Source: a virus. Taken from it: a stretch of DNA of 64,000 bases. Of this stretch, positions 7,987-36,153 are shown piece after piece. The stretch spans positions 98,231 through 162,230 of IMG/VR virus record IMGVR_UViG_3300045988_177552; one strand, 5' to 3'. A model generated the notes under the pieces. The model did no database searches and was not told the DNA's origin. It saw only the letters and a program-made list of their open reading frames with translations. How positions within the stretch are numbered: position 1 is the first letter of the stretch; each line of letters begins with the position of its first letter. Position numbers and translations under genes: made by a program.

Positions 7987-8510
7987 TATTCTTGGCCTTC
8001 CTCTTTCTTTTCGAGAAGTTCTTTGAGACTGTTCTCAATTCTCTGACTGATGCTCTTGGTGAACTTCTTTGCTCCAGCCATGATATCATTGAGAGAGCTT
8101 TCCATGTTCAATACCTCACGGAGCTCCTTCACGTCTTTGTCATCGATGACCTTTTGAATCTTCTCACCAAGCATCTCCACGAGCTCACTATTCTCCAAGA
8201 ACTCAGATCCTTTATTCTTCAGGGCGTCATATCCCTCCAGGACCTTCTCCTTGAGTTCCTTAAGCAAACGTTCCTCACGCTCCTCATCTGTAAGACTAGC
8301 CTCTCTTACCATTGCGGCAATCTCTTCGTCCGACAGGTCAGGATTATTCTTGATTCTCTCAAAGATCTCCTCGCGTGTAGGTCTCTTATCTTCTTTCAGT
8401 TCTACCACACTGGCCTTAACGCCATTGATAAACTCTTCACTTGCCTCTTTAAAACTAGCTGCTGAGGCCTTAAGACTTTCATTGATCTTCTTCCAATTAA
8501 ATTTGCTCAT
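7986..8510 (-). CDS. acidic coiled-coil protein
   Basis: 174 aa, E/K-rich, predicted coiled coil. Confidence 0.35.
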   Translation of the reverse strand: MSKFNWKKINESLKASAASFKEASEEFINGVKASVVELKEDKRPTREEIFERIKNNPDLSDEEIAAMVREASLTDEEREERLLKELKEKVLEGYDALKNKGSEFLENSELVEMLGEKIQKVIDDKDVKELREVLNMESSLNDIMAGAKKFTKSISQRIENSLKELLEKKEEGQE

Positions 8511-8612
8511 ATTTTTTTTTAAATTAATAGTTTTTTAATCATATATAAGGAAATAAAGGGTGAGTAAGACTATCCATCCCGGACTGTCCTACTCTGTAAC
8601 AAAGTTGCCCAA

Positions 8613-8990
8613 TTAATTGCCTACTTTTATTATTTTAACTAAGGAAGAAAGAGAACTAACCCTTATCCCCAACTCCCTGACAACCTCTTCAACAGTATCA
8701 AACCTCTCCTTGAAGGATTGGTAATATTGTTTGGCGATTGCATATTGGTTTGGGTCTGGATCTGAAAGTTTTCTGTTGACCATCGCTATAAGTTCATCAA
8801 CATTCTCTTTCAACTCATCTTTCCCTAAGTTATATTCCTCTATAATCCTTTTTGCTTTTTCGAAATAGGACCTTATCTCTTCAATAGTGGCTTCCTTATT
8901 ACTAGCCTCTAATTCAAGTTTAGCCCTCTCTAATTCAGCCTCAATCCCAGATATCTTTGATTGAAGTTCATTAAATTTATCTTTCTCCAT
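8613..8990 (-). CDS. hypothetical coiled-coil protein
   Basis: 125-aa ORF. Confidence 0.35.
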   Translation of the reverse strand: MEKDKFNELQSKISGIEAELERAKLELEASNKEATIEEIRSYFEKAKRIIEEYNLGKDELKENVDELIAMVNRKLSDPDPNQYAIAKQYYQSFKERFDTVEEVVRELGIRVSSLSSLVKIIKVGN

Positions 8991-15634: not shown

Positions 15635-16316
15635 TGAGATAACATTAGGGGAAGAATTACGTGGGCCATTACTAGGAACACTCTACAAAGAAGCAGAGCG
15701 GTACATTAGGCATATATATCTTGACAGGTTACACAGGACTTTCTTGTTTGACTTATTTCCAAGGAGAGGCTTAATAATTCCTTTGGAGATATTTTCAAGG
15801 TGGTTAGAACGCTTTGATGTCTCCAGAGTTGAAATCATATCTTCAGGAAGTTTCTTGTCCAGAATTCTCAAAGGTCCTGGATATGAGTCATTCAGTGGTT
15901 TGTTTCATGAGATAAACAGAACATGCTATTATCAAGGGGATCACTTCATTCTTGGGTTAATTCAATCTTTCAAGGATTCAACCCTTAATATGCAAGTGTT
16001 TCCTAATAACGAGGGATATATATTGCCTTATGATAGGTATTCCAGGAACTTTGGAAGAGATTGCCCATTATGGAACCTACTACCTGACGAAATTAGGTAC
16101 GGTGGGGCTAGTAGTATTAATGTTAAGTACCTGGATAGACGAGATGACCTATGTGTTTATGTAGGAAATTATGCTGTTATCTTCAAATTCAAGGATGACA
16201 TAGTTTTAATTTATGGAATCCTCGATCTCACTACAAGTAAATGGGTTTTCAATGAGAAATATGAACAAGTAAAAACATTATATAAGTATGAAAATAAAGA
16301 GAATAACTATTTTTGA
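15603..16316 (+). CDS. hypothetical protein
   Basis: 237-aa ORF in operon. Confidence 0.4.
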   Translation: MSIVGVLQKYSEITLGEELRGPLLGTLYKEAERYIRHIYLDRLHRTFLFDLFPRRGLIIPLEIFSRWLERFDVSRVEIISSGSFLSRILKGPGYESFSGLFHEINRTCYYQGDHFILGLIQSFKDSTLNMQVFPNNEGYILPYDRYSRNFGRDCPLWNLLPDEIRYGGASSINVKYLDRRDDLCVYVGNYAVIFKFKDDIVLIYGILDLTTSKWVFNEKYEQVKTLYKYENKENNYF

Positions 16317-17142
16317 ATGGTTCGGATCAAGGGATAACTTCTACTTAGAGTTGGATCCTGATGTTACGATCTTGAAAGGGAAAAATCAAACAGGGAAGAC
16401 GCTTTTCCTTCGCGATATTGAGTCCCTAGTGCAATGTGTCAGGAAGAATAAGACAACAGGAAGGGCTGAATGGAGTGGAGATACTACAGACGTCTTTGCT
16501 AGGGTAGAATTTGATGCTCCCAATACGACTGCAATGTGGGTTTCAAGAGAACTAACTGAAGCTAAAAGTCATGATGTCTACAGTGCTAAGAACTATAATC
16601 ACAATACACAGGACCTCATCAGTATTTGGGACCCTGAAACTGTCTTAGATATACAGACCCTTAACGACTTGACTGTAGAGAGTATTGATCTGATCTACTC
16701 TAAGATGAAAGATGAAGATCAGGATAAGGTCTTAAAAGCAATGAACTACGTGATGGGAGGAGACGAGACAATAGTAACTATCTATGAGATGGTAGCTTAC
16801 AATTCCTCTGCATTCAAAGTTAGATTCGCTGGCAAGAAGACTATGGATATTAGCCAACTTTCTTTCGGAGTAAAGATGTTATTCAATATCCTGATCAATA
16901 CTCCGGTGGGCGAAGGAAAGATCTACTTTATTGATAGTCCGGAACTTGGCATTAGTGATGACTGGAGTTCTAGGGTAATAACTGGAGTGAAAATGATTAA
17001 TCCGGATTGTCAAGTCTTAGTAACAACGAATCAGATCATGGTTGGAGATGAATGGCCTAAGAAGATGAAATCTATAAGTTCTTGTCTCCGTAAGGTTATT
17101 CCGACGTCTCCCACTAAGAAAGAAGAAGGAGGTGAAGCATGA
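16288..17142 (+). CDS. ABC/AAA_21-like ATPase
   Basis: Walker A GKNQTGKT, Walker B-like IYFIDSPELG. Confidence 0.5.
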   Translation: MKIKRITIFEWFGSRDNFYLELDPDVTILKGKNQTGKTLFLRDIESLVQCVRKNKTTGRAEWSGDTTDVFARVEFDAPNTTAMWVSRELTEAKSHDVYSAKNYNHNTQDLISIWDPETVLDIQTLNDLTVESIDLIYSKMKDEDQDKVLKAMNYVMGGDETIVTIYEMVAYNSSAFKVRFAGKKTMDISQLSFGVKMLFNILINTPVGEGKIYFIDSPELGISDDWSSRVITGVKMINPDCQVLVTTNQIMVGDEWPKKMKSISSCLRKVIPTSPTKKEEGGEA

Positions 17143-18030: not shown

Positions 18031-18774
18031 TTACTCTTTCCTTCCTACGCTATATATCTCATTTATTCCAAGACATCTATATCCAGTTTCTCCATAGTGA
18101 CCCGTCAGAGATTGATGATGGTGTCCATAAAACCACTGAGAACACCTTACTTCATACAAAACATGATCGAGATATCTCCTGGTATTCAAGACCTTTTCCC
18201 ATGTCTCATAAGCAACATCATCTCCTCTCATTGGAATAGGTAGGAAACTCATTGGGGCTTCATGTGAGACAACTATATCTACACGTGTAGGTAATCCCCT
18301 CTCTTTAACAATGGGACTTTCATTTTCCCACCAGACTCTTCTCCTTGAACCAAACCTGATTAATCTATCATTCTCCTGTCTCCTACTTCTGAGTCTTCCA
18401 TAACATCCGGGCTTATCTATATCTACTGACACAGCTCCGCCAACAGGATATATTAAGAATCCACATAGGGTCACAGGAATATGATCAGGCAGGAAATGAA
18501 GCCTGGAGTAATCATGTTCTCCATCAAACCAAGAAGGATCATCATGGTTTCCTCTGATTGTATAGAGAGTCAAGTTATTTTTCTCTAACTTATCCTTTAC
18601 TTTATCATAGAGGACATCCATTGACTTAGGACCACCAAACCCAACTCCGAAGTCTCCAACTATCAAGATATCAGAGTCCCTAACCTTTTTCTGAATCACT
18701 AAGGTATGCACTAAGAGTTTTAATTCTCCGTGTATATCTCCACAAATATATAAACATTTCTTTTCCATATTCAT
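18031..18774 (-). CDS. calcineurin-like metallophosphoesterase (Ser/Thr phosphatase-like)
   Basis: GDIHG, GDFGVGFG, GNHD motifs. Confidence 0.6.
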   Translation of the reverse strand: MNMEKKCLYICGDIHGELKLLVHTLVIQKKVRDSDILIVGDFGVGFGGPKSMDVLYDKVKDKLEKNNLTLYTIRGNHDDPSWFDGEHDYSRLHFLPDHIPVTLCGFLIYPVGGAVSVDIDKPGCYGRLRSRRQENDRLIRFGSRRRVWWENESPIVKERGLPTRVDIVVSHEAPMSFLPIPMRGDDVAYETWEKVLNTRRYLDHVLYEVRCSQWFYGHHHQSLTGHYGETGYRCLGINEIYSVGRKE

Positions 18775-18816: not shown

Positions 18817-19536
18817 ATGAATATGATTATAAACATTAATAATATGAAACGAGACTTTAGAAAATTTTTTAAGTCAAGACATCCATTTGAGATGACAGTA
18901 CTTGACGATTATGAGAAGAAGACTAAGACAGGTCTGATCACTCCCTACGTTACTAGGGAAAGCCAAGAAAGAATGGTTCAGGTCGATGTATTCTCGGAGT
19001 TAATGAGCAATAGGATCCTCTTCTTTGGGGATGAGGTTAATTCAGATACCTCCAATATCGCTCTTTCCCAGCTTCTGTACCTTCATGCAAATTCTCACGA
19101 ACCCATCACAGTTTACATCTCATCACCTGGAGGAGCTGTATATAATGGATTGGCACTCTACGATACGATGCAGCTTGTGGGGAAAGATTGCATAGTAAGG
19201 ACTGTCTGCTTGGGATTAGCAGCTTCAATGGGTAGTATTCTCATGGTCGGTGGAACAAGGGGTCATAGATCTGCGCTTGAACATAGCCGTATCATGATTC
19301 ACTCTGTATCAACTGGTTCAGATAGAGTTACGTATCCTGACTTGAAGATCTTAAGCGAAGAAACAGGAAAACTGAACGATGAACTGATGACAATCCTTTC
19401 AGAGAAGACAGGAAAACCGATCGAAGAAGTTATAAAAGATGCTGGAAGAGATTGCTGGCTTAAGGCGAGTGAATGTTTGCCTGGAGTTTATGGAAAGTTT
19501 GGACTTATTGATAGTATAGTTACTACTTTGCAGTAA
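18817..19536 (+). CDS. clpP: ATP-dependent Clp protease proteolytic subunit
   Basis: ClpP family hallmarks: ILFFGDEV, SSPGG, GLAASMGS (active Ser), His/Asp region. Confidence 0.85.
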   Translation: MNMIININNMKRDFRKFFKSRHPFEMTVLDDYEKKTKTGLITPYVTRESQERMVQVDVFSELMSNRILFFGDEVNSDTSNIALSQLLYLHANSHEPITVYISSPGGAVYNGLALYDTMQLVGKDCIVRTVCLGLAASMGSILMVGGTRGHRSALEHSRIMIHSVSTGSDRVTYPDLKILSEETGKLNDELMTILSEKTGKPIEEVIKDAGRDCWLKASECLPGVYGKFGLIDSIVTTLQ

Positions 19537-19650
19537 TTTTAGAGAAGGACTGGCTTGTGATAAGTCGGTCTTCTTTTTTTTTTCTTCACCCAGGACAAAA
19601 AAAAAGAAAAGGCAGGCTCATTGTCCATACCTTTTCAGTTCAGTCTTAGG

Positions 19651-20451
19651 CTATCCTATAGAAGTCTCAATCTTAGCTCCAAAGCTCTCAACAAGTTCAC
19701 CCCAAAGTCTCTCGGTTGCTTCACACTTTGTATTGATAGCAGCCATACAGTCATCCAGGATTATTAATTTTCCCTGGAACCTAGAGTCATTCATGAGGTC
19801 AATCAGAGTATACCTTACACAATAATCCTTTGCAAATCCAGCCACAAAGATATTATCGTACTCTGCCATGTCATCGAGAGCCTCTGTAACCCAGGAAGGA
19901 GAAGTTCCGTCAGCATAGGAGAAAGCTGAATACATCTCAGCTCCATCATACTCTCCCTTGTCGATAATCTTATAATGCCGATTCATATCCCTTGTCCAGA
20001 GATTAAGAGAGAACATTAGGTTATCGGGGAATTGCTGTCCTGTTGATCCATGAAGACAATGTTCAGGCCAGATATGATGCATCTCTCCCTTAGCCTCTAT
20101 AGCATTTAAGTACTTGAGTGCCTCCTCCTTGGTTATATAGGCTGGCTCATAGACTCCTGCTTCAACCTGCTTAGCAGAGATTGTTATAGGATAATTGTCT
20201 ATAATATGCCTTGGATTTCCCTCTAACCAAGCAAAGGGAGTTCCAATGTGAGTTATGAAGTGATTATCCCTTGTCAGAGTTATATCGCTGATAACCCCAA
20301 CGTTTCTATAAATGTCAATGAATGAACAAAGTCTCTTCATTGCATCTACTGCTCCCATTACGTACAATTTTCCTGAGATGTCGACAAAATCAATCTGTGC
20401 ATCAATGACCAGGAGCAGATTTTTCTTTCCTTTCAAGTCGCTAAATTTCAT
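19651..20451 (-). CDS. pncA: nicotinamidase / isochorismatase-family hydrolase
   Basis: LLVIDAQIDF N-terminal Asp motif, conserved Lys and Cys (DYCVRYT) spacing typical of PncA. Confidence 0.55.
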   Translation of the reverse strand: MKFSDLKGKKNLLLVIDAQIDFVDISGKLYVMGAVDAMKRLCSFIDIYRNVGVISDITLTRDNHFITHIGTPFAWLEGNPRHIIDNYPITISAKQVEAGVYEPAYITKEEALKYLNAIEAKGEMHHIWPEHCLHGSTGQQFPDNLMFSLNLWTRDMNRHYKIIDKGEYDGAEMYSAFSYADGTSPSWVTEALDDMAEYDNIFVAGFAKDYCVRYTLIDLMNDSRFQGKLIILDDCMAAINTKCEATERLWGELVESFGAKIETSIG

Positions 20452-21655
20452 ATTTTTCAGATATTTTAATGTTATTCTCTAAGATTCCCGATACCTCTAA
20501 GAACTTGTCAAGCGTTAGATCACAGTAATCATCGACCCAATCAGCAATATAATAGAGGCACCTACTGTCGGCCATAATTCCGAAAAGGATAGGGTCAGCC
20601 TTCTTTCTTCTTTCCTCCTCCTTCTCGTCCTTCGTTGCCTTATAGACTTTTCCATCCGGGTCATAGTGAAGAACGACATAGTTATCAAAGACATGGAGAC
20701 TATCTGCTTCAAGCTTCTTTTCCCTAACTTCCTTGGGAATTGGTCTTGAGAAGTTCTTGATATAACATAAAGATATTCCCTTCTCTGACAGCTTAATGAA
20801 ACTGACCATCTGAGCTTCTGTGATTCTTTTCTCAAATCCCTTTGACCTGAGGATGGATTCATACTTGACTGTAAACAACCTAGCCAACCATTTATCAACT
20901 AAGGCTGTCTGTCCCATCTCCTTAGCATCTTTCAGGGCTGCCAGGTAAGATCCAATACGTCCATAATAGTCATCAACTTCTTTCTGAGTCGTAAGTTTAA
21001 CCAAGTCAAAGAATTTAATGACATCCAACTTATAGACCTTTGGCTTTTCTTCCTTAGGATCTTTATCAGGCATCTCTTCCTCCTTTTTCTTTTCAGATTC
21101 AGAAGATTTCTTGAATACCTTCCCTAGGAGGCCTTTCATCCAACCTTTCTTTTCCTCTTTCTTATTGGATTGATAAAGATTCTCTAGGGCTTTCGCTGTA
21201 CTCCCCATGGTATTCCTGAAATTATCAATAGTATCAGTGTCTACTTCCTCCTCTATCCAGATCTGATCAGGTGTTACCAGTTTATATTGAGAGGCCATGT
21301 TCTTCGCTTTCTTCTCATCTACGAGGAAATTCAACTCATCAATAGACATAGCATCGAAGGCTTCTTGAGTAATAGTCTGTTGGGTTCTCATCCTTGCTAA
21401 GGCCTTTCTCTTTTCATAGGAATTGAATACTGAAACTTCCCTATCTTTAACAGCCCTATCTGAAGAGGAATAATCTTCTGTGACAGTTACGACACCATTC
21501 TTTCCTTCCTCAACTTTTTTCAAGATCGCATTATATTTCGGAAGGGTATAGTCAATCTCTACAGTTTCAGTAAAGATTCTGAGATATGACTGTGATCTAT
21601 CTAAGATTTCTGTTGCCATAGGCCTAAGCGACATCTTCGTCCAAGTGAAGCTCAT
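20441..21655 (-). CDS. hypothetical protein embedded in the NAD salvage operon
   Basis: 404 aa with K/E-rich linker; overlaps pncB and pncA ends (operon). Confidence 0.4.
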   Translation of the reverse strand: MSFTWTKMSLRPMATEILDRSQSYLRIFTETVEIDYTLPKYNAILKKVEEGKNGVVTVTEDYSSSDRAVKDREVSVFNSYEKRKALARMRTQQTITQEAFDAMSIDELNFLVDEKKAKNMASQYKLVTPDQIWIEEEVDTDTIDNFRNTMGSTAKALENLYQSNKKEEKKGWMKGLLGKVFKKSSESEKKKEEEMPDKDPKEEKPKVYKLDVIKFFDLVKLTTQKEVDDYYGRIGSYLAALKDAKEMGQTALVDKWLARLFTVKYESILRSKGFEKRITEAQMVSFIKLSEKGISLCYIKNFSRPIPKEVREKKLEADSLHVFDNYVVLHYDPDGKVYKATKDEKEEERRKKADPILFGIMADSRCLYYIADWVDDYCDLTLDKFLEVSGILENNIKISEKYEI

Positions 21656-22811
21656 ACTTAGCTATCTCAATCTCCTTAGGATCACCGATATGCTTTCCTT
21701 CATCATCGCTAATTTTGATAGTTTTCTCCCAAGGATCTTTAGCGCTCATCCTGACACGGCTAAGTTTCATCACGATATTGGCAGGCTTATAACCCTCAAT
21801 ATCAGGATCACAAGTAAGGTTAGTTCCTATACCAGCGGATACCTGAATTCTATTTCCAAAGTAGTCTCTAATAGTCTTATACTTCGGAAAATCAAGAGCA
21901 TTGGAGAATACCAAGAGCTTTGTCTTTGGATCTATTCCGAACTCCTCCAATCTCTCGATAATCATATTACCAATCTTGAAATTATCACCAGAATCAATCC
22001 TATAGCCCTGGAGAAGAAGTGCTTGTTGTCTTGTGAGGGTCCTAAGGAAAGACTTTGTTCCAAACAAGTCTGTCAAGGCTGTTCCCAAGTCTCCCTTATA
22101 GACATCAATCCAGGCTTCCAACATGAGATAGTTCGCCCTCTTATTGCCAAACATACCAGCATGGGCCTGAATCCACTCATGAGGGAATGTGCCAATAGGA
22201 GTCATGTCATACTTCATTGCATAGTACATATTAGACGTACCAGTGCAATAGATCGGACATCTCTCTTTGAGTCTTCTCACAACCTCATCCTGTACTAATG
22301 AGCTGAAACGCCTCCTTGTTCCAAACTCACTAAACTTAAGCTGGTACTCATTAGCGAAGTCAATCTTCTTGTCCAGCTTCCTTATAATATCTTGGATGTT
22401 AGCTTTCACACCAAGTCTAGCATTTCTCAACTCACTGACCGTATAGAGAACAAGGATCTCATACCAAGTCACCTTATAGAGACGGTCTGTAACTTCAATC
22501 TTCAATTCACCCGTCTCAGTCAAAGAAACTTGTATCCTCTTCGGCTCAAATCTGAATGTCTTAAGCCACTCCCAATACGGAAGGTCAATATACTTAATTC
22601 TCTTACTAACAAACTCAAATTCTTTGTCAGTCAATTTCAACATACCAGCCTTAGCGAATTCCAAGTTGAGAGCTTCTACAAATTTTTCATCGTAAGTCTC
22701 ATGGTTACGATCGTAGAATGTAAATGTTCCTTCTGCTAATGGATATAATTTCCAATAAGCAAATGATGTACTCGCTTTGTACAAATCAGTGTCTAAAATA
22801 CTTTGTATCAT
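21624..22811 (-). CDS. pncB: nicotinate phosphoribosyltransferase
   Basis: LDTDLYK, FGTRRRFS, GTSN, HEW, LVFSNALD, GIGTNLTCD blocks align with E. coli PncB. Confidence 0.8.
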   Translation of the reverse strand: MIQSILDTDLYKASTSFAYWKLYPLAEGTFTFYDRNHETYDEKFVEALNLEFAKAGMLKLTDKEFEFVSKRIKYIDLPYWEWLKTFRFEPKRIQVSLTETGELKIEVTDRLYKVTWYEILVLYTVSELRNARLGVKANIQDIIRKLDKKIDFANEYQLKFSEFGTRRRFSSLVQDEVVRRLKERCPIYCTGTSNMYYAMKYDMTPIGTFPHEWIQAHAGMFGNKRANYLMLEAWIDVYKGDLGTALTDLFGTKSFLRTLTRQQALLLQGYRIDSGDNFKIGNMIIERLEEFGIDPKTKLLVFSNALDFPKYKTIRDYFGNRIQVSAGIGTNLTCDPDIEGYKPANIVMKLSRVRMSAKDPWEKTIKISDDEGKHIGDPKEIEIAKYELHLDEDVA

Positions 22812-22910
22812 AATATACCTTTTTAATAAGTTTGATTAATACTCACTGATAAGGTTTTGAAGGATAAAAGAAAAGAGGGACTTACATTTTCCCTCCTCCC
22901 TTTATCATCA

Positions 22911-23504
22911 TCAAGAGAATTCGACTGATGTACTAAACCGAAGACCGTCTGAATAGAAATCATAGTATCCAGTGGGTTGATATCCTAAGGACCTCCAGAA
23001 GTTATCCCTCTCGTGATCATAATAATATCCATACTCCCTAGGATATTTCTTGTAATACATTTCCCCGTCAAGCATAGGTTCAGTTCCTTGCCATAATAGG
23101 GAGTCTCTTTCTACAGTCTCCTTAAACCAAGCCTCTTTGTCTAGATACTCTTCCTCGTATTCATCATAGAGTCTTACGTCAGGTCTCATAAGGAACCCTA
23201 AGATGCCCTCCTTGGTAAGATCATAATACTGTTTAATCCCCCAAGAACTGACATACCTCTTAGTTTCCGAATCATAGGATCCATTATTTACTTTCCAGAC
23301 ATTTGGGTTCCAGAGAAATTTCCATCCCCCAGATCTCTTTCCAAGATGAATAATGCCGCCTCTCCATTCATACTGCCCTGGTTCAGAATAAGTTAAAGAG
23401 ACTTCATCAACAATCTCCTTAAACTTATCCTCATCAATCAGTCGTTTTAGCTCCTCTTTCCTTTCTTTTGTTGGAATAATCCTTGCATAAAAATTAGTTC
23501 CCAT
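22911..23504 (-). CDS. hypothetical protein
   Basis: 197 aa, Y/W/E-rich. Confidence 0.4.
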   Translation of the reverse strand: MGTNFYARIIPTKERKEELKRLIDEDKFKEIVDEVSLTYSEPGQYEWRGGIIHLGKRSGGWKFLWNPNVWKVNNGSYDSETKRYVSSWGIKQYYDLTKEGILGFLMRPDVRLYDEYEEEYLDKEAWFKETVERDSLLWQGTEPMLDGEMYYKKYPREYGYYYDHERDNFWRSLGYQPTGYYDFYSDGLRFSTSVEFS

Positions 23505-23632: not shown

Positions 23633-24463
23633 CTAATTGCTAGTCGCCCACTCCTTGACTTCTTTGAGATATCCTGGAGTGAGTTCGATTATGTTAACGT
23701 GTTCCATATCACTTAACCTGTTGATTAAGATAGGGTTATGAATTACGGCAATTATCTGAGTATCTGGTCTATTCGTCTTAAGCACCCCTAGGAGGTCCTT
23801 TGAATATTTTATACTAAGATTTCTATCAGGTTCATCAAGAAGTATTGTTACTCTATTCTCTGTTTTCTCTGACCCTGGTAGATCATGTTTCTCGTAATAC
23901 TCTACAAGACTCTGGAACCTCTTACTCCAAACATCATTGCTTTCCTTTATGGCCTTCTTTATTCTCTCCAGAGGAAATTCTTTGGGAGCCTCTTTTCCGA
24001 ACATGAATTTGAAGAGAACACTAATAGAGTTTATCGTGGATTCTCCCGTTGAACCATTCATTCCGTTCATCTTAAGTTGAAAATTATGTATACTGTCAGC
24101 GAATTCGTAGTCGTTTATATCTGCCGACATCCTTAAGTTGAACGTTGGAAGTAAATAATCAGAGAATACATCAACTCCATCATTAAACCTGTCATCCTCT
24201 CCTCCCAATACATAGTCATCCCAGAATAGTCTTTTCAAGTGAAGTGTATCATTTCCTCCAGTCTTAAACTCTGAGCATAGATTCTTATCACACAACGTAT
24301 AAGAAGCTAGTAATTTCATTAGAGTTGATTTTCCAGAACCATTTTCTCCAATCACAATATTAACATGTGGCGTAAAATTAAACTCTTCACCACCTTTAAA
24401 TACTTTGTTACACCATGATATCGGCGTACTCTCAATATCTTTAATAATTACTTTTGTTATCAT
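23633..24463 (-). CDS. ABC/AAA_21-like ATPase
   Basis: Walker A GENGSGKST, Walker B ILLDEPD, H-loop IHNP. Confidence 0.5.
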   Translation of the reverse strand: MITKVIIKDIESTPISWCNKVFKGGEEFNFTPHVNIVIGENGSGKSTLMKLLASYTLCDKNLCSEFKTGGNDTLHLKRLFWDDYVLGGEDDRFNDGVDVFSDYLLPTFNLRMSADINDYEFADSIHNFQLKMNGMNGSTGESTINSISVLFKFMFGKEAPKEFPLERIKKAIKESNDVWSKRFQSLVEYYEKHDLPGSEKTENRVTILLDEPDRNLSIKYSKDLLGVLKTNRPDTQIIAVIHNPILINRLSDMEHVNIIELTPGYLKEVKEWATSN

Positions 24464-25072: not shown

Positions 25073-27835
25073 TTATTTCATTTTAATTCCAGTTATTCCA
25101 CCTTCGTTCAATTCCAACTTTAACGATTTATTGTTGAAAGCTGGGATAGAATCCATATGGCTGCTAAGGAGAGTTAAGCCGATATTCATTTGTCCTATCA
25201 TATCAAGGACTATATCATGATTTGAAGAATCTAGGTGTTTTAAGAATTCATCCATAATCAAGAGACCCATCCTAGTAACAACTTTGCTTAGGAAATCTAC
25301 ATCAAGTAACGTTCTCTGACCATCTGAACAATTAACATATCTCACATTATTTCCATTGAGATTATATGAAGATTCCAAGTTGAGATGATCTTTTCCTCTA
25401 AACGTTGTCTGTGTAACCTCATACTTTATCCTATTATCACTAAACTGATCTGCCAACCTTGTCATAATCTCTTTATAGATAATTCCTGTCGGTCCTGTCA
25501 GTTTAATGTAGGCTTGGTATGCTTCTACGGCCTTTGACATCTCTTGTAGGTGAGATTCGCAAGCCTGAATTTCCTCTAAGGCAGCTGTCCTATCTCTTAT
25601 TAAGGATTCATATTGGTCCCATGTCACCAAGTCCTTCTCTAGCTTCCCCATTGTCTCCATAAAATCCAAAGGCAACTCTACTTTCTCAGGTTGTGGCCCT
25701 ATACTTTCAATAGACTTCTCAACCTCCCCTAGTTTTGTCTCCTCAGAATTTTTCTCCCAGAGCAACCTATTATACTCATTGGTTTCAGAAATTCTCTTAG
25801 CTATCTCTGTTGACATCTGAGATATAAACCCTTTACAGCCAGAATCAATTTCCTGTTTATCCTGAATTCCGAAGTCCCAAAATTCCTGATAGAGTGAATT
25901 CTGCTTTCCAACCAAATCCTGAATCTGAGCATCAAGTTCAGCCTTATGTTGCTCTAAGTGTTCTCCTGGTTTGATAGGTTGACCACAGGAAGGACAGACT
26001 TTCTTTTTCTCCAAGTCCTGTCTCTCATAGTAAGCCTTCTTTCCAAGTTGTTTGATTTCATTCAACCTGGTCACAGCATTAGTCACCCAATCGAGCTTCT
26101 TATGATACTCATCTGTTTCTTTATTGATGACATCCAGGGGCCTAACGTTGGAGAGACTAGGGAGAATAATTTCAGTCAACCTCTTCCCTATCGATTCCTT
26201 CTGAGCTTGAAGATTTGCAGTCGTAGTCATGTACCTATTATAGGCCATCCACTTCTCTTGCATACTCTTCCCATATGCCTTCTTGGATTGGAGATCTTCT
26301 TTTGTAAGTTCGGGCAAGACTAGGGAATCCAACTTTCCATTTAAGTAAGTCAACAATTCTCCTGCCTTATCCTGTCTCTCCTTCCAACCACTACCTTGTC
26401 TTAGGTATTGCTCCAAAAGAATCCTCGCCTGATCATTATAAGCATCAATCCTATCCATCTTATAGAACCTACTTATGATCTCACTCTTCCTCTCTGGTGT
26501 TATGTCACCAATGAGCTTAGGATGATCTGAGTCAAAGAAGTAGACGTCCATGTAATCAATGAATGGGAACCTTACGTGCATATCTTTCTCAAAGTCTTTC
26601 TTGCAATTATACTTTTGAGGCTCTCCATTTATCCAGAAGCCATACCTCTTGGAACCTCTCTGAATTTTATACTGAGATCCTTGATATAAGAATTCTACCT
26701 CTGTCCAACACTCTTTAGTTCCAAATTGAATAAGATCCTTAGGGTGCGGATTCTCTAGGAAAGCATATTTCAAAGCACTAAGAAGAGAACTTTTACCTGA
26801 TCCATTCTCTCCTGTAACCAGTACCTTGTCCATATCCTCGAAAAAGAGCTCAACCTCATCTATACTTCTCCAATTCTTACAATAGAATCTTGTAATAACG
26901 AAATTGAAATCAACCTCTTTCGAATCAATGTCCTGAATATTCTGAATTACCTCACTATGAACTCCCTGAAGTGAGTTGGAAATGATTATATTATCCGTCA
27001 AGTGTTCAATCTCCTCCCAAGCTGGAATTTCAATATCCCTAACACCACCGGAAATAGATTGATTTGAAGGTTTATAAACACTCCAAACACCTGTCGAAGC
27101 ATTCCATCCTTCCTCATCCCGCTTATCTGTATATTGGAATTTCATCAAGTTATCATGAGGGTTCAGGTTTACCCATTTCCATGACTTCTTTTCCGGTTCC
27201 AAAATAATGCCAGTTGAATATTCACAGTCCGACATCTTACACCTCTGAGGAATTCCTATACTGACAAACTTTCCATTTTGTGCTGGTTTATGAATATCTC
27301 CACAAATAGCCAGGTCAAACTTAGTCTCATCTAAGATTTGTGAGTGGTAATTATCATCAGGGGAATAGGAAATAGTAGCATGAGTAAATAAGACATCAAG
27401 CTTTCCATTAATCCAGGATAAGTTAAATTCCGGTCTCCAGTTATAGAAGCCAATCCTACAACCGTCCACATTAATCTCCTTCATATCAGAGTAATAGAGA
27501 TTATGGGGCAACATAACACCGAGACAAGAATCCGAAAGTTCTGAATCTACTCCTTTATTATCCTGATCATGATTTCCTAAGATGAAATACCCAACCCTGA
27601 AATGCTCCATCAAGGTATCCAGGAACATCTTAACTTCGTTCTGGATATAAGGGCGGATAAGGAATTTCTCGATAATATCACCAGCCAAGACAATAATATC
27701 ACAACCTTCCTGTTCTCCAACCTCAATTATATTTTGACATACAGTTCTTGTTTGATAGAGTCTATACTTTTCCGACGGATTTCTCTGCGGATAGTCATAG
27801 ATATGTATGTCTGATATTGCAAGAATCCTACTCAT
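25073..27835 (-). CDS. fused Mre11/SbcD nuclease and Rad50/SbcC ATPase
   Basis: N-terminal phosphoesterase motifs (SDIHI, AGDI, GNHD); Walker A GENGSGKSS; long coiled coils with CPSCGQP zinc hook; C-terminal LLIMDEF Walker B. Confidence 0.65.
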   Translation of the reverse strand: MSRILAISDIHIYDYPQRNPSEKYRLYQTRTVCQNIIEVGEQEGCDIIVLAGDIIEKFLIRPYIQNEVKMFLDTLMEHFRVGYFILGNHDQDNKGVDSELSDSCLGVMLPHNLYYSDMKEINVDGCRIGFYNWRPEFNLSWINGKLDVLFTHATISYSPDDNYHSQILDETKFDLAICGDIHKPAQNGKFVSIGIPQRCKMSDCEYSTGIILEPEKKSWKWVNLNPHDNLMKFQYTDKRDEEGWNASTGVWSVYKPSNQSISGGVRDIEIPAWEEIEHLTDNIIISNSLQGVHSEVIQNIQDIDSKEVDFNFVITRFYCKNWRSIDEVELFFEDMDKVLVTGENGSGKSSLLSALKYAFLENPHPKDLIQFGTKECWTEVEFLYQGSQYKIQRGSKRYGFWINGEPQKYNCKKDFEKDMHVRFPFIDYMDVYFFDSDHPKLIGDITPERKSEIISRFYKMDRIDAYNDQARILLEQYLRQGSGWKERQDKAGELLTYLNGKLDSLVLPELTKEDLQSKKAYGKSMQEKWMAYNRYMTTTANLQAQKESIGKRLTEIILPSLSNVRPLDVINKETDEYHKKLDWVTNAVTRLNEIKQLGKKAYYERQDLEKKKVCPSCGQPIKPGEHLEQHKAELDAQIQDLVGKQNSLYQEFWDFGIQDKQEIDSGCKGFISQMSTEIAKRISETNEYNRLLWEKNSEETKLGEVEKSIESIGPQPEKVELPLDFMETMGKLEKDLVTWDQYESLIRDRTAALEEIQACESHLQEMSKAVEAYQAYIKLTGPTGIIYKEIMTRLADQFSDNRIKYEVTQTTFRGKDHLNLESSYNLNGNNVRYVNCSDGQRTLLDVDFLSKVVTRMGLLIMDEFLKHLDSSNHDIVLDMIGQMNIGLTLLSSHMDSIPAFNNKSLKLELNEGGITGIKMK

Positions 27836-31238: not shown

Positions 31239-32771
31239 ATGATTACTTACATTATTTGTGGTGTAGTAGCAGTGCTATTAGTAGTGTTAATCTCAAGTAG
31301 TTATGTCAAAGCTCCTCCCTCATTTGCCTTTGTAATCTCTGGTCTCAATAAAGAGCCTAGGGTACTCATTGGCAAGGGCGGATTCCGAGTTCCTGGATTG
31401 GAGCGCCTGGACAAAGTGTATCTTGGCCAAATCACAGTTGACGTTGATACCGAAGGAAGTGTTCCTACAAACGATTTCCTCGATGTCATTGTATCATCTG
31501 TCGCTAAGATACGTGTAGTCCAGACTCCGGAAGGTATTAGGTTGGCTGCTAAGAACTTCCTCAACATGACATCTGAAAAGATCTCTGAGCAAGTTAGAGC
31601 AACTCTCCAAGGTAACCTCCGTGAAATCATTGGAACTATGGACCTCAAATCTCTTAACATCAACAGAGAGGGATTCAGTCAGGCAGTTACGAAGAGTGCA
31701 ACACCAGACATGGACAAACTTGGTATTGAGATTCTTAGCTTCAATATCCAGAACATCAGTGATAAGGACGGCTTGATTCGTGATCTCGGTGCTGACAATA
31801 CTGCTAGCATCAGGAAGGCAGCCGCTATCAATAAGGCTAATGCTACACGTGATATCAAGATTCAAGAGGCAATCGCTGAACGTGAAGCAAACGAGGCCCG
31901 TGTTGAAGCTGATACTGCCATCGCTGAGAAGAATAATGAGCTTGAGCTGAAAAAAGCGGCCTTGAAGAAACAGTCTGATGCAGCAAAGGCAGAGGCTGAT
32001 GCAGCTTATGAGATTCAGAAGCAGATCCAGCAGAAGACTATCAACATCTCAAAATCAGAAGCTGAGATTGAATTGAAGAAGCAGCAACAGATCATCTCTA
32101 ATGAATCAATCAAGATTAAGGAGAATGAACTTACTGCAACAGTCAACAAACAGGCTGAAGCAGACAAGTACAAGACTCAGGTTAATGCAGAGGCTGAGCT
32201 GGAACAAAGAAAGAGAAAGGCTGAAGCTGAGCGTTATGAAAAGGAACAACAGGCTGCTGCTAGGAATGCAGAGGCTGACGCTATAAGGTACGCTCAGGAA
32301 CAGAAAGCTCTTGGTATTAAGGCAGAAGGTGAAGCTGAAGCCGCTGCCATAGAAGCTAAGGGTAAGGCAGAAGCAGCAGCAATTGAAGCTAAGGCAAAAG
32401 CTGAGGCCGCTGGTATGAAAGAAAAAGCAGAAGCATTCAAGCAGTACAATGATGCTGCTGTAACTCAAATGCTTATCGATAAACTTCCTGAGGTTGCCAA
32501 TTCTGTCTCAAGTGCTATCGCTGGCATCAAGGGTATCAATATCTACAGTGCCGGAGGTGGCGATGGCGAAGGAGCTATCGGTTCAGTATCAGGCAATGTT
32601 CCTGTAGTGATCAAGCAGGTTTTTGACACTATGGAGAGCGTTACTGGAGTTCCTATGGCTGAACTCGTCAAGGCTCATACAATCGAGGCTAAGACAACCA
32701 GGAAGATTCAGGTTGATGATGCCCTGGCTGAAGTAGCTGATGAAATACTTGAAAGCGCTAAGAAAAAGTAG
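31239..32771 (+). CDS. SPFH/band-7 flotillin-like protein
   Basis: N-terminal TM helix, SPFH core, long EA-rich coiled coil (AEAAAIEAKGKAEAAA repeats); elevated GC. Confidence 0.7.
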   Translation: MITYIICGVVAVLLVVLISSSYVKAPPSFAFVISGLNKEPRVLIGKGGFRVPGLERLDKVYLGQITVDVDTEGSVPTNDFLDVIVSSVAKIRVVQTPEGIRLAAKNFLNMTSEKISEQVRATLQGNLREIIGTMDLKSLNINREGFSQAVTKSATPDMDKLGIEILSFNIQNISDKDGLIRDLGADNTASIRKAAAINKANATRDIKIQEAIAEREANEARVEADTAIAEKNNELELKKAALKKQSDAAKAEADAAYEIQKQIQQKTINISKSEAEIELKKQQQIISNESIKIKENELTATVNKQAEADKYKTQVNAEAELEQRKRKAEAERYEKEQQAAARNAEADAIRYAQEQKALGIKAEGEAEAAAIEAKGKAEAAAIEAKAKAEAAGMKEKAEAFKQYNDAAVTQMLIDKLPEVANSVSSAIAGIKGINIYSAGGGDGEGAIGSVSGNVPVVIKQVFDTMESVTGVPMAELVKAHTIEAKTTRKIQVDDALAEVADEILESAKKK

Positions 32772-32889: not shown

Positions 32890-34764
32890 ATGAATGGAAG
32901 GTACGAAGACATTAATCAAATTGATTTGGTATTAAGTATGTTTAATCAATACCTATTCCAGGATTGTAAGAATAATATTGATGACTTGATATATTCTTAT
33001 CAGACTAATATGGCAACAAACGGCAATAGACTGGTAGAGTTACTCTTGGATTCAATAAAAAATTACACCCTGGATAATATTGGTTTACCATTATTTCAAA
33101 GCATCCTGGGGAGGTGTGGAAAAACTGGGCCTGAGAGTCAACAGATCATCAATAAGATCATAGAGTATAAGATGTACACTAAGGATCAGATTGAACCAAT
33201 GAAGAAATACGTTAAGGATATGATTGCTAAGACGTATATTCTCAGAGCTAATGATCGCTATAGTGATTCCCCTAGTGATTTCATAAACTACCTTAAGGGT
33301 GTAAACTTTAAATCTTCGGCTGTTGATTACTTGACATCTACGAAATTTGGAGATATAGATGTAAATTCAATCAAGGCGGAAGAACAAAACCAAGGAATTC
33401 CATCTTCTTTTGAGTGGATTAATCAAACTTTCCGCCCTGAATGTATGTATCCAAGGATGGGATTGTTCTGTGTTTCAATGCCTCCTGGTTGTATGGCAGG
33501 AGATACTGAGGTCTTTCTTGCAGATGGGACAGTAAAAACTCTGGAGGATCTCTATAAAAGCAAAAAGACAAATATTACGATCTATGCATGTGATGGAAAT
33601 GATCCAAAGGTTTCAGTAGCAGAGAATTGTCAGATCTCTAAGTACGTGAATTCCTGGTATGTAGTTGAGATTGATGGAAAGAAGGAATATAGGGTTACTG
33701 AAAACCACCCATTCCTAATGATAAACGGAGAATGGAAGAGGGCAGATAAGCTTGTTGAAGGTGATATTCTAATGACATTTAACTATAAGTCAGTAAATGA
33801 AAAAGTGATTCACACAATCACTAAGGTATATGTTGAGACCTTAAAGGAACCACAGCCAGTATATGACTTAGTAAATGTCGATCTCTATCATAATTATGCA
33901 GTAAAGTTCGACGAAACATCTGGATTCTTTAGCCACAACACTGGTAAGACCCTTTTCTGTATGCAAGAGTGTCTTTATATGTGCTTGAAAGGAAAGAAAT
34001 GTCATTATCTCTGTATGGGTGATATGACAGAATCCGACTTTATCATTCGTATGGCAGCTCAATATTTTGGAATCCCATTCTATGAGGCTAAAAGAAACTT
34101 CGATATCGTCTATGAAGAACTAAAGAAAGTCATAGGGGACAGACTTGAGATTACTTGTATTCCTGCCAGTGTTATTACAGTGGATGAATATATTGAATTT
34201 GTTAAGAGTAAGGACTATGATGTCTGTTTCTGTGATTATGATAGTCAGTTTAAATCTAATGTCTATACAGAATCAATGTACCTAACTTACGGTGATATCT
34301 ATGCTAAATTGAGTGAGCTTACGATACAGTATAAAAAACTAGTATTCATCTTAGCTCAGCCTATGAAAGCGTCTTGGTCTCTCCCTGTTATTGAAATTGA
34401 TCAGGTAGGTGAGAGTGCTAGGAAGATTCATGCCGTAGACTGGTGTTTGACAAGGGGACGTGAGCCTGGAAACTTGAATGGCTTGGGAATTTCTAAGATA
34501 GTTAAATCTAGACGTGGAGAGGAACAAGTTATAGATTACAATATTAGGCTGAACAACGGTAGATTTAAAAGTCTTCCTAGGGCAGTCTATGAGGATATCA
34601 AGCAGATTCCAGAAAAGAAAGACTATACAGAAGCTGAGATTGACAATATGATAAATAATTACCTTCAAGCTAGAGGACAGGTTCAGCAATCTATCAATAA
34701 TAAAATGGGAAATTCAGGAATAAACAATTCAGGACCTAATAGGAGAGGCGCGGCACCATTTTAA
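32890..34764 (+). CDS. RecA-fold replicative helicase (DnaB-like), intein-containing
   Basis: Extein junction restores PPG|TGKT Walker A; downstream VCFCDYDSQ resembles DnaB Walker B/DYLQ block. Confidence 0.55.
   Translation: MNGRYEDINQIDLVLSMFNQYLFQDCKNNIDDLIYSYQTNMATNGNRLVELLLDSIKNYTLDNIGLPLFQSILGRCGKTGPESQQIINKIIEYKMYTKDQIEPMKKYVKDMIAKTYILRANDRYSDSPSDFINYLKGVNFKSSAVDYLTSTKFGDIDVNSIKAEEQNQGIPSSFEWINQTFRPECMYPRMGLFCVSMPPGCMAGDTEVFLADGTVKTLEDLYKSKKTNITIYACDGNDPKVSVAENCQISKYVNSWYVVEIDGKKEYRVTENHPFLMINGEWKRADKLVEGDILMTFNYKSVNEKVIHTITKVYVETLKEPQPVYDLVNVDLYHNYAVKFDETSGFFSHNTGKTLFCMQECLYMCLKGKKCHYLCMGDMTESDFIIRMAAQYFGIPFYEAKRNFDIVYEELKKVIGDRLEITCIPASVITVDEYIEFVKSKDYDVCFCDYDSQFKSNVYTESMYLTYGDIYAKLSELTIQYKKLVFILAQPMKASWSLPVIEIDQVGESARKIHAVDWCLTRGREPGNLNGLGISKIVKSRRGEEQVIDYNIRLNNGRFKSLPRAVYEDIKQIPEKKDYTEAEIDNMINNYLQARGQVQQSINNKMGNSGINNSGPNRRGAAPF
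33490..33939 (+). other. mini-intein (150 aa, no endonuclease domain) inserted in helicase P-loop
   Basis: Block A CMAGDTEV, block B TENHPF, blocks F/G VYDLVNVDLYHNYAV...SGFFSHN followed by extein T. Confidence 0.7.
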
Positions 34765-34767
34765 ATT

Positions 34768-36153
34768 ATGGAAGAATTAATAAACAGCCCAGAGATGATG
34801 CTTAGACTAGATCTTGAAAAAGAAACCTACTCTAAGTATTATCACGACTTGGTAGACTACTGTAAAAACAAGTACCCAGGAAGAGATAAGTCTATTTATG
34901 TAGACTATCTTGAAGAGCATCATATTCTACCTCGGTGTATGGGAGGAAAGGATGAAGATAGCAACTTAGTACTAATGAACTATAGATGCCACGTCTTAGC
35001 CCATTGTTTACTATTTTTAATGGATCAAGACAGTAGAAGCTTGGCGAAAGCTGCTTGGTACATGTTATATACAGCAAATAACAATAGGGGAGGAAAGGAT
35101 ATAAATAGTTTAATATTAAGTTTCGAAAAATTTAAGGAAGAGTTATTTAATACGCTAAAGAAACCAATCGTATGTCTATCTTTAGATCTTAAGGTTGTAA
35201 AAATATACAAAGGAGTTCTAGAAATAAAAGTAGATGGTTTTTCTCCAAAACTTATGAGTCGAGTCCTAAAGAATAGGGAAATGCACAAAGGGTATCTGTG
35301 GGAAAGATTAGAAGATGTTGAAGATAAATATCCAGAAGAGATAAAAGAGTACTACAGAGACTTGGAAAATGGGAATGTTCGAACCATAAATAAAGATAAA
35401 ACTTGGATAAAAGAACAGACTACGCTGTACAGATCTCGATATAGACGAGGAAATAAGGGAAAAACCGTGGTTGGGTATGATGACGAAGTGTATTGTGTAT
35501 TTAATAATATATCCGTTGCCAAGAGACTAGGATTTTCTGCTTCAATTATAAGTTTAAACATAAACAATAAAGCTACAGTCAATAATGGGGGATACTCTTG
35601 GAAACTTATTAAATCAGATGACGACTTAAAAGATATCTCAAGTAGTAGAAAGAGAGTAGAAGAAATTCACCCTAAATCAAAAAGAGTTATCTGTTTTGAT
35701 AAAGAGAATAATAGAATTATTAAAATTTACAAAACACAAAAGGATACCGCAGCGGACGGTTTTGTTTATACTACTGTTTGTTCAGCTTTGGCAAGTGATT
35801 CTAGAAAATATTGTGGATATTATTGGTATCTAGAGTACGAATGGAAGGATAAAGATCTTCTAGAGGATTATAATAGAAGAGATGTTTTACCCGAAGTTAT
35901 TGTAAATAGGCCAAACGATCCCATAAAATTAGTTCAATTAAGTGAAAACCATAAGATTGTAAATGTATTTAGTAATCTACATGATGCTAAACCATTTGAC
36001 TATCGAGCATTAAGCAAGGTCCTAAAAAAGGAAGATAGGTTCTATAAAGGATTCTTTTGGTTTACAATGGATGAACTGAAAGTTAAATTTCCAAACATTA
36101 TAAAAGAATATGAAGAAAGAATTAAGTATAGTAATAACACTAGAAAAAATTAA
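34768..36153 (+). CDS. HNH homing endonuclease with repeated putative DNA-binding modules
   Basis: HHILPRCMGG...N...HVLAH HNH core; three repeats with G[YF]xW + acidic KYPEEIKEY-like blocks. Confidence 0.65.
   Translation: MEELINSPEMMLRLDLEKETYSKYYHDLVDYCKNKYPGRDKSIYVDYLEEHHILPRCMGGKDEDSNLVLMNYRCHVLAHCLLFLMDQDSRSLAKAAWYMLYTANNNRGGKDINSLILSFEKFKEELFNTLKKPIVCLSLDLKVVKIYKGVLEIKVDGFSPKLMSRVLKNREMHKGYLWERLEDVEDKYPEEIKEYYRDLENGNVRTINKDKTWIKEQTTLYRSRYRRGNKGKTVVGYDDEVYCVFNNISVAKRLGFSASIISLNINNKATVNNGGYSWKLIKSDDDLKDISSSRKRVEEIHPKSKRVICFDKENNRIIKIYKTQKDTAADGFVYTTVCSALASDSRKYCGYYWYLEYEWKDKDLLEDYNRRDVLPEVIVNRPNDPIKLVQLSENHKIVNVFSNLHDAKPFDYRALSKVLKKEDRFYKGFFWFTMDELKVKFPNIIKEYEERIKYSNNTRKN

Follow-up and report, generated by a model that had tools for sequence, protein, structure and literature searches.

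A pncB–X–pncA gene cassette in a putative large Bacteroidales phage as candidate front end of Preiss-Handler NAD salvage

The virus record IMGVR_UViG_3300045988_177552 of IMG/VR carries three tightly packed minus-strand genes that raise the question of whether they form an NAD salvage operon, what such an operon would serve, and whether the middle gene, termed X here, is a part of it. They lie in the window, that is, the 64,000-nucleotide (nt) stretch from position 98,231 to 162,230 of that record, whose open reading frame (ORF) list holds three minus-strand ORFs at 19651-22811. The original prediction, made from the letters alone, had assigned them to a nicotinate phosphoribosyltransferase (PncB), a protein of unknown family and a nicotinamidase-family enzyme (PncA), and had proposed that they convert nicotinamide to nicotinic acid mononucleotide (NaMN) and possibly counter NAD-depleting host defense. 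The locus is best explained, with reasonable though not high confidence, as an auxiliary metabolic cassette of a large Bacteroidales phage that would form the front end of Preiss-Handler NAD salvage.

The two salvage enzymes and their predicted pathway

By family, the product of 21624..22811 (minus strand, 395 amino acids (aa)) is unambiguously a nicotinate phosphoribosyltransferase, predicted to join nicotinate and phosphoribosyl pyrophosphate (PRPP), with ATP, into NaMN. Pfam matched both its N-terminal domain (NAPRTase_N, PF17767, 86.1 bits) and its catalytic barrel (NAPRTase, PF04095, 144.8 bits), and the NCBIfam equivalog TIGR01514 scored 356.4 bits against a cutoff of 269.55 (NF003704, 390.3 against 379), confirming the assignment made originally. 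The best PDB match was 2im5 (E 1.2e-90, residues 2-386), in which G-T-H-P-H-E-W is aligned with G-T-F-P-H211-E-W of the phage protein. The histidine of this motif, which corresponds to the autophosphorylated one of enterobacterial PncB (His219 in the Salmonella/E. coli enzyme), was invariant in all five phage PncB types aligned.

The window PncB was 64-66% identical to the chromosomal PncB on contigs of two Bacteroidia/Bacteroidales metagenome-assembled genomes, and these contigs are truly chromosomal, with PncB flanked by MnmE, Rho and LptD. Nearly all genome matches came from rumen or gut Bacteroidales. In a bootstrapped tree including bacterial sequences, the window PncB (type 1) grouped with chromosomal Bacteroidales PncBs (200/200), the L031 type with a different Bacteroidales/Muribaculaceae set (61% identity, 200/200), and type 2 stood apart as a lineage of its own (200/200); the phage sequences were monophyletic in 0/200. 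This polyphyly indicates that pncB was captured or replaced more than once, apparently landing immediately upstream of X on every occasion.

The product of 19651..20451 (minus strand, 266 aa, isochorismatase fold) should be filed as a divergent nicotinamidase-like subfamily with predicted intact catalytic and metal sites. Its Pfam match to Isochorismatase just passed the cutoff (28.4 vs. 27 bits) and was aligned over aa 197-244 only. Six of its seven PDB sequence matches were nicotinamidases or pyrazinamidases, including 2wt9 (6e-10), 2h0r (yeast Pnc1) and 3pl1, and one was labeled only "alpha/beta-hydrolase-like." Residues D17/K165/C211 were aligned to D8/K122/C167 of Pnc1 (2h0r), its Asp-Lys-Cys catalytic triad. 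Likewise, D62/H64/H131, the last of them in a WPEHC motif, were aligned to D51/H53/H94, the zinc ligands of Pnc1; the metal site with WPxHC sets nicotinamidases apart from other isochorismatase-fold hydrolases. All six residues were invariant in 13 phage homologues, so that the nicotinamidase assignment held although the scores against curated models were weak. These weak scores are accounted for by a conserved insertion of ~30-55 aa between the D-x-H and WPxHC motifs (between H68 and W128), which makes the protein longer than canonical nicotinamidases (~180-215 aa). Insertion-bearing nicotinamidases are rare, as only 13 clusters were found. A loss of catalytic residues was looked for in both enzymes, and none was lost: the PncB histidine and the six PncA-like residues are kept. 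In two related contigs, L002 (6222..7325) and L003 (7722..9110), the nicotinamidase carries an extra N-terminal ~100-200 aa (367 and 462 aa in total), and this extension had no match in Pfam.

The three genes had been described as overlapping, which was correct for positions and for one of the two junctions: the PncA-like gene, with its ATG at 20451, shares 11 nt with the end of X. Between PncB and X, there is a 32-nt overlap if the ORF-finder start of X at 21655 is taken (20441..21655, minus strand, 404 aa). However, X homologues start at the position of M13 in the alignment, making the ATG at 21619 the likely start (20441..21619, 392 aa), which lies 4 nt past the PncB stop codon, i.e., a gap. 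Upstream of pncB, a terminator-like minus-strand hairpin at 22866..22895 (GAGGGA, 9-nt loop, TCCCTC, then TTTTCTTTT) was read by eye; a T-run stands directly behind it, and the site is just past the upstream gene 22911..23504. It was absent from the terminator scanner output, since its 9-nt loop exceeds the 8-nt loop limit. The hairpin suggests that pncB opens a separate transcription unit, if it acts as a terminator. At the other end, the convergent intergenic region 19537..19650 separates the cassette from the ClpP gene on the plus strand (18817..19536) and has T/A runs on both strands; the scan found there a terminator-like site, with a T-run behind a hairpin at 19546-19572. A sigma-70 promoter scan gave no minus-strand site upstream of pncB, Bacteroidota-type promoters being outside its coverage. 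Given the tight junctions and the flanking terminator-like sites, pncB, X and pncA look like one co-translated unit. The same order was found in eight dereplicated X lineages, and because it recurs in independent metagenomic contigs with differing flanking genes, the arrangement is not a chance juxtaposition. X between PncB and the PncA-like gene was found only on phage and metagenomic contigs.

Homology of both enzymes thus supports the proposed conversion of nicotinamide to NaMN. In the first step, the nicotinamidase would deamidate nicotinamide to nicotinate, with Cys211 as nucleophile, together with Asp17, Lys165 and a metal held by Asp62/His64/His131. In the second step, PncB, probably a recent acquisition from a Bacteroidales host, would join nicotinate and PRPP into NaMN at the expense of an ATP-driven phosphorylation of His211. 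The cassette would end there. No NadD (CTP_transf_like), NadE (NAD_synthase), NMNAT, Nampt, PnuC or Nudix gene was found among the 10 neighboring and 57 other ORFs of the window, so that NAD+ would have to be reached through NadD and NadE of the host or through phage copies beyond the window. Overall, nicotinamide, which SIR2, TIR and SEFIR NADases and ADP-ribosyltransferases all release, would be drawn back toward NAD+ during infection. This would supply NAD-consuming phage functions, e.g., the ligase-like protein encoded at 45019..46536, and might blunt NAD-depletion defenses. NAD supply for replication is as plausible a reading as counter-defense, and the data fit both and discriminate neither. 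X would be co-expressed with the two enzymes as a member of a widespread phage family, and would owe its position to a gene order inherited within one phage clade.

Comparison with phage and bacterial NAD pathways

The PncB alignment was used to scan IMG/VR, and 380 contigs were obtained, the best 80 of which fell into 23 clusters at 90% identity. A canonical PncA of ~190 aa was encoded just upstream of PncB in 19 of the 23 clusters, NadE (PF02540, 110 bits) was found in 14, NadD (PF01467, 69 bits) in nine, and a Nudix protein in seven. The common arrangement was pncA-(Nudix)-pncB-nadE-nadD without X, and none of these best 80 contigs had X within 7 kb. The full gene set in related phages shows that this phage group would use the Preiss-Handler route, as judged from gene content. 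Since NadD and NadE are lacking among the scanned ORFs of the window, the cassette is not a complete Preiss-Handler cluster but a truncated, rearranged and X-interrupted variant of the known phage one.

Gut "NAD-jumbo phages" with a pncB-nadD-nadE cluster (Kuafu_71) have been described, with mention of a phage pncA and with both an NAD-supply role and a possible counter-defense role raised (Microbiome 2024, PMC11662467). As here, these are large phages of gut or rumen, many of which infect Bacteroidota, and a host-derived pncB is clustered with NAD salvage genes. In contrast, nadD and nadE are found here neither at the locus nor in the 64-kb window, the order is pncB-X-pncA, and a rare insertion-bearing nicotinamidase is combined with an embedded, translationally coupled X. 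Phages with these salvage genes have therefore already been reported, and only X as the middle gene is new.

The experimentally proven phage pathways are NARP1 (Adps and Namat), NARP2 (Nampt and Nmnat) and NARP3 (PnuC and a NadR-like protein), with no mention of PncA/PncB, and NARP2 was shown to counter NAD-depleting defenses (bioRxiv 10.1101/2024.02.11.579819). NARP2 and the KVP40 NadV/NatV pair resemble the cassette in being phage salvage from nicotinamide and PRPP through a type II phosphoribosyltransferase of the NAPRTase/Nampt superfamily. However, NARP2, with its bifunctional Nmnat/Nudix protein, leads from nicotinamide through nicotinamide mononucleotide (NMN) to NAD+ in two phage steps and is self-sufficient, whereas the cassette would lead through nicotinate to NaMN and stop; the scanned ORFs had no Nampt-specific or NMNAT domain. 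NARP1 and NARP3 are likewise encoded in phage operons and restore NAD+ from its precursors or breakdown products, and NARP1-AP adds a Macro-domain phosphatase, the window having a Macro gene elsewhere. Their chemistry and protein families differ from those of the cassette, as NARP1 uses ADP-ribose (ADPR) pyrophosphate and nicotinamide, and NARP3 imports, phosphorylates and adenylylates nicotinamide riboside (NR). No Prs-like/Pribosyl_synth, Namat, PnuC or NadR gene was found among the scanned ORFs, and the cassette is not NARP1, NARP2 or NARP3. In the 2022 survey of viral NAD/ADPR systems, NadV, NadM and NadR were the only phage NAD-synthesis enzymes (PMC9503650).

Compared with bacterial genes, the cassette PncB has the same family, domains and catalytic histidine as chromosomal PncB, and the PncA-like protein has a triad and metal site identical to those of characterized nicotinamidases. 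They differ in that the cassette is on a phage-like contig, its PncA is highly divergent with an insertion, and X stands between the two genes.

Protein X and the rival explanations

No Pfam or NCBIfam family matched X, in keeping with the unknown family first assigned to it. X matched PHROG 10081, labeled "transposase," with aa 210-387 against positions 6-184 of the 254-position profile (E 4.1e-18, 66.9 bits). Its architecture comprises an N-terminal motif (L-x-I-F...I-D-x-x-L-P-K), a variable K/E-rich helical or disordered linker (~aa 54-220) and a C-terminal alpha/beta domain (~205-404). Across 141 diverse members, near-invariant residues were Q249, P307, D324, D332, D354-P-I-L-F-G359, Y368, D372-W373, D375 and C378. 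In AlphaFold2, the N-terminal motif and the C-terminal domain (pLDDT 77.9, pTM 0.73) were modeled confidently and the linker was not. The predicted fold matched no known structure, NadD/NadE/NMNAT and transposases included, which was the comparison proposed originally for this protein, and no PDB sequence was matched below E 0.75 by a profile of the X domain. The X sequence has no (H/T)xGH or SGGxDS motif, no Pfam match to CTP_transf_like or NAD_synthase, and no Pfam transposase, integrase or nuclease domain. A 17-bit PADLOC match in the low-complexity linker was judged spurious.

The X family is large. A word-indexed search gave 118 homologues, and no Pfam domain was present in any of them. 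When the C-terminal domain was searched exhaustively as a profile, at least 1,362 clusters at 50% identity were obtained, 870 of them at E ≤1e-30; the matching proteins are 200-430 aa long and carry the domain at their C-terminal end in nearly all cases. By tblastn, X was present in 50 deposited phages, among them Enterococcus Schiekvirus, Bacillus SPbeta-like, Fusobacterium Fnu1 and a Twort-like Staphylococcus phage, where it is annotated as "hypothetical protein" or "transposase," and it was single-copy in every phage record. Three members of PHROG 10081, Enterococcus phage EFP01 gp131, Fusobacterium phage Fnu1 gp007 and Bacillus phage SPbetaL1 WIT26940, share the C-terminal domain and the signature FDxY...DPILFG...YxxxDWxDxYCDLT with X but are shorter (~245 aa), and the contexts of these proteins are a nucleotide-metabolism block with PnuC, an RlaP RNA-repair nucleotidyltransferase neighbor, and small early genes. 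The "transposase" label in GenBank (NC_047796.1 gp131, NC_055035.1 gp007) appears to have been propagated from the PHROG 10081 label, and the domain, fold and copy-number checks gave it no support. X is concluded to be a widespread phage protein, possibly enzymatic, that by its sequence is neither a recognizable NadD/NadE analogue nor a transposase.

The neighborhoods of X within 8 kb were then surveyed in 31 dereplicated lineages. PncB was immediately upstream of X in nine lineages and a PncA-like gene one to three genes downstream in eight, while 22 lineages had neither, with heterogeneous neighbors; in a large jumbo-phage group (L036-type), X and PncB are >100 kb apart in the same genome. 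In a neighbor-joining tree, the X proteins linked to PncB and PncA formed essentially one clade, which fits an inherited gene order, and across this clade X co-diverges with the linked PncA-like gene. PncB behaves otherwise, as X of L008 and L002 is 75% identical and PncB only 34%. In viral scans for NadE, one of which covered 80 of at least 376 matches, canonical NadE was found together with X in the genomes L032 and L035. Because the family is huge and mostly found away from NAD genes, and because X is missing from the best 80 PncB loci, X is probably not an obligatory pathway component, and its description as a possible new component of the pathway now appears unlikely.

Several further observations were made on the neighbors of X. 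RNA-repair-type nucleotidyltransferases stand beside it repeatedly, i.e., RlaP (Fnu1), Thg1 (L006, L081) and a CCA-adding/HD enzyme (L036, L067, L033), and an ATP-dependent ligase neighbors it in L280. A CCA-adding/poly(A)-polymerase-type enzyme (PolyA_pol 81.5 bits, plus HD) also lies near pncA-pncB in L116, L163, L178 and L123, which suggests a shared module of NAD genes and tRNA repair in these jumbo-phage genomes. In EFP01 (L089, 2031..3628), a dNK-family protein (129 bits; annotated "thymidylate kinase") is encoded directly upstream of a PnuC-like NMN/NR transporter (81.5 bits), itself three genes from gp131, and this pair might be a NARP3-like module for NR uptake and phosphorylation. 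In L281, a 262-kb JGI contig with its X homologue at 8001..8864, a methyltransferase is at +1 and a PARP with a PARP_reg domain at +3, and a Nudix protein and an ARPP-1/ARPP-2 protein lie upstream, ARPP being predicted to act on ADPR. The 197-aa protein encoded just upstream of pncB (22911..23504, minus strand) had no Pfam, PHROG or PADLOC match; its homologues lie two to three genes upstream of X in L001 and also in the distant X lineage L032, making it a second unexplained co-traveler of X. Two candidate neighbors were rejected: in SPbetaL1, the source of purified Adps and Namat, X is not beside NARP1, the large ORFs 4 kb upstream being a DndB-like protein and the MrpR recombinase, and the Fnu1 "ComF family" and "RfaE" neighbors had no Pfam support as phosphoribosyltransferase- or NMNAT-like proteins, the real upstream neighbor being RlaP.

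A number of points weigh against the explanation preferred here, a front-end salvage cassette in which X is a bystander of inherited gene order. On the side of the enzymes, Bacteroidales hosts already hold a chromosomal PncB (L092, L093), so the gain from a phage copy is not obvious. The PncA-like protein scored 44.7 bits against a cutoff of 174 for the NCBIfam nicotinamidase PRK11609, and given this score and the large insertion, its substrate could differ. A route through PRPP, three ATP-consuming steps and host NadD/NadE also seems slower than NARP1 in responding to acute NAD depletion. On the side of X, the three X-linked PncB types share ≤40% mutual identity and are polyphyletic (200/200), yet all stand immediately upstream of X; insertion-bearing PncA-like genes occur without PncB 2-3 kb from X in L032 and L035; the EFP01 transporter is three genes away; and PARP, Nudix and ARPP proteins flank X in L281. 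These PncB lineages and NAD-related neighbors hint at a possible functional tie between X and NAD metabolism.

How far such a tie would go was weighed in several forms. The locus could be a dedicated counter-defense module including X, selected against NAD-depleting immunity (SIR2-HerA, DSR, Thoeris, SEFIR) as NARP1-3 are, with X as an accessory factor such as a regulator, a PncB scaffold or an NADase inhibitor; we consider this possible but doubtful. Nicotinamide is a product that these NADases share, and the NARP pathways demonstrate that phages rebuild NAD+ to escape (bioRxiv 10.1101/2024.02.11.579819; PMC13464706). The DarG-like Macro protein (161.7 bits) and the SLOG protein of the window would mark a genome invested in NAD/ADPR conflicts, translation of X is coupled to that of both enzymes (junctions of +4 and −11 nt), and the three PncB lineages at position −1 of X together with the PncA, PnuC and PARP/Nudix/ARPP neighbors of its homologues (L032, L035; EFP01; L281) point the same way. 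However, the pathway is incomplete in the window, and X homologues and phage pncA-pncB clusters mostly occur apart. As NAD/ADPR genes are present in ~85% of jumbo phages (PMC9503650), chance proximity is likely, and if host copies replaced pncB in situ, its position would be preserved with no selection for adjacency. More narrowly, X might be an unrecognized enzyme or effector of NAD/ADPR or PRPP-nucleotide metabolism, e.g., a PncB activator or channeling partner, a non-canonical NaMN-processing enzyme or an inhibitor of NADase effectors. We think this improbable; if true, it would explain why three independently acquired PncB lineages stand immediately upstream of X and why PncA, PnuC, PARP/Nudix/ARPP and RNA-repair nucleotidyltransferase neighbors recur in unrelated phages.

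A stronger claim, that X is a new enzyme replacing NadD and/or NadE and thereby making the three genes a self-sufficient, non-canonical route to NAD+, is very unlikely. X follows PncB here where NadE and NadD follow it in related phages (14 and nine of the 23 clusters), no NadD or NadE was found within 8 kb in the clade or in the 64-kb window, the invariant Q249, D324, D332, D354, D372, D375 and C378 are typical of an active or metal-binding site, and the confidently modeled C-terminal fold has no known relative. Against this, X lacks the motifs and domain matches of both enzymes, its family is common in phages without a nearby PncB (Enterococcus, SPbeta-like, Fusobacterium), the L032 and L035 genomes have a canonical NadE as well as X, and in the L036-type genomes X and PncB are far apart. 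The view that X is a mobile-element gene interrupting an ordinary pncB-pncA pair hardly deserves credence. The PHROG 10081 label, copied in several GenBank phage records, would favor it, as would the adjacent pncA and pncB without X at most phage loci and the neighbors of X that vary widely between lineages. However, X has neither a transposase, integrase or nuclease domain nor a match to such a fold, the 4-nt gap and 11-nt overlap leave no space for element ends, X is single-copy and co-diverges with the linked PncA-like gene, and the order pncB-X-pncA rather than the common pncA-pncB is not that of a simple insertion into the common pair.

Other genes of the window and significance of the cassette

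X and cassette homologues were found on IMG/VR viral contigs and on metagenomic contigs of up to ~480 kb. The window carries genes of a large-phage type, encoding an SbcCD-like fusion, ClpP, a GroEL-like chaperonin (47017..48642), an intein-containing protein, an HNH protein, a dUTPase/dCTP deaminase-like protein, endonuclease V, an IMPDH/GMP reductase, a ClpB-like AAA+ protein, a Macro domain and a SLOG protein. We infer that the source genome is a large Bacteroidales phage of gut or rumen. No tRNAs were found in the window, and a DNA-level comparison gave no close relative of the region among deposited phage genomes. Among 47 ORFs aligned were also an M42 aminopeptidase, two peptidase C26 (gamma-glutamyl hydrolase-like) proteins, a formate/nitrite transporter, a radical SAM protein, an MreB-like actin and a phiEco32-like COOH-NH2 ligase.

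The three genes that had been linked to the cassette as NAD-related lie 14-25 kb from it and are not part of it. The Macro and SLOG proteins proved real. The Macro-domain protein (38944..39561, minus strand, Pfam Macro 51 bits) is DarG-like, with aa 1-146 matching positions 1-144 of the 329-position PADLOC DarG profile (161.7 bits, E 7.6e-48). This similarity suggests that it would reverse DarT-type DNA ADP-ribosylation rather than bind glycocyclic ADPR, and a phage DarG-type macrodomain could serve as anti-DarTG counter-defense or, alternatively, be akin to the Poa1p-like Adpp phosphatase of NARP1-AP. The 131-aa SLOG protein (36924..37319, plus strand, PF10686, 58.9 bits) belongs to the YspA/cpYpsA-related YAcAr family, a SLOG clade predicted in the Aravind-lab survey to act on NAD/ADPR-derived molecules (PMC9503650). 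The NAD-dependent ligase-like assignment of the third gene (45019..46536, minus strand, 505 aa) stood in part: its Pfam match to DNA_ligase_OB was below threshold (23.4 vs. 32.9 bits) and no PDB sequence matched, but a KYDG motif, a LigA domain-Ia-like motif (AYWIDNIPTGMTDEVFDKY) and a Cys4 finger were seen by eye, apparently with no helix-hairpin-helix or BRCT domain. It is plausibly a minimal LigA-like NAD+-dependent ligase and would thus consume the NAD pool.

A calcineurin-like metallophosphoesterase (18031..18774, minus strand, PHROG 1649, 98.6 bits) is encoded two genes from the cassette, and a calcineurin-like Metallophos protein of similar size was found two to four genes upstream of pncB in eight of the 23 PncB clusters; it may be functionally connected with NAD/nucleotide metabolism. 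Its reading as the "phage phosphatase" that counters RES defense was rejected, that enzyme being a Poa1p-like Macro domain. Two small ABC/OLD-type ATPases flank the cassette region (16288..17142, plus strand; 23633..24463, minus strand), one of them AriA-like over its full length (59.8 bits) and the other AAA_21/PtuA/GajA-like through its P-loop. Such defense-type ATPases are unusual on a phage and might serve superinfection exclusion or DNA repair. Farther away, the window encodes the 920-aa Metallophos and SMC (SbcCD-like) fusion (25073..27835, minus strand) and, on the plus strand, a 510-aa SPFH/Band 7 and flotillin-domain protein (31239..32771), a 624-aa protein interrupted by an intein splicing domain (32890..34764; aa 208-350, 40 bits) and, next to it, a 461-aa HNH-domain protein (34768..36153). 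In L279, too, a Band_7 protein is encoded ~4 kb away from the X homologue.

NAD+ is central to the conflict between bacteria and phages. NARP1, NARP2 and NARP3 have been proven by experiment, and none of them runs through the nicotinamidase/PncB (Preiss-Handler) route, which the 380 IMG/VR contigs with PncB relatives indicate to be common in Bacteroidales phages. The repeated capture of pncB from hosts points to strong, recurrent selection, and the minimal two-enzyme cassette is a clean test case for dependence on host NadD/NadE. The X family is very large and uncharacterized, with enzyme-like conservation and no structural relative, and is mislabeled as "transposase" by annotation pipelines. 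Relabeling X and finding its function would touch the annotation of many phage genomes, including those of Enterococcus and Fusobacterium phages. The interest of the locus therefore lies mainly in the putative counter-defense potential of a common Preiss-Handler route and in a large, mislabeled and structurally orphan protein family.

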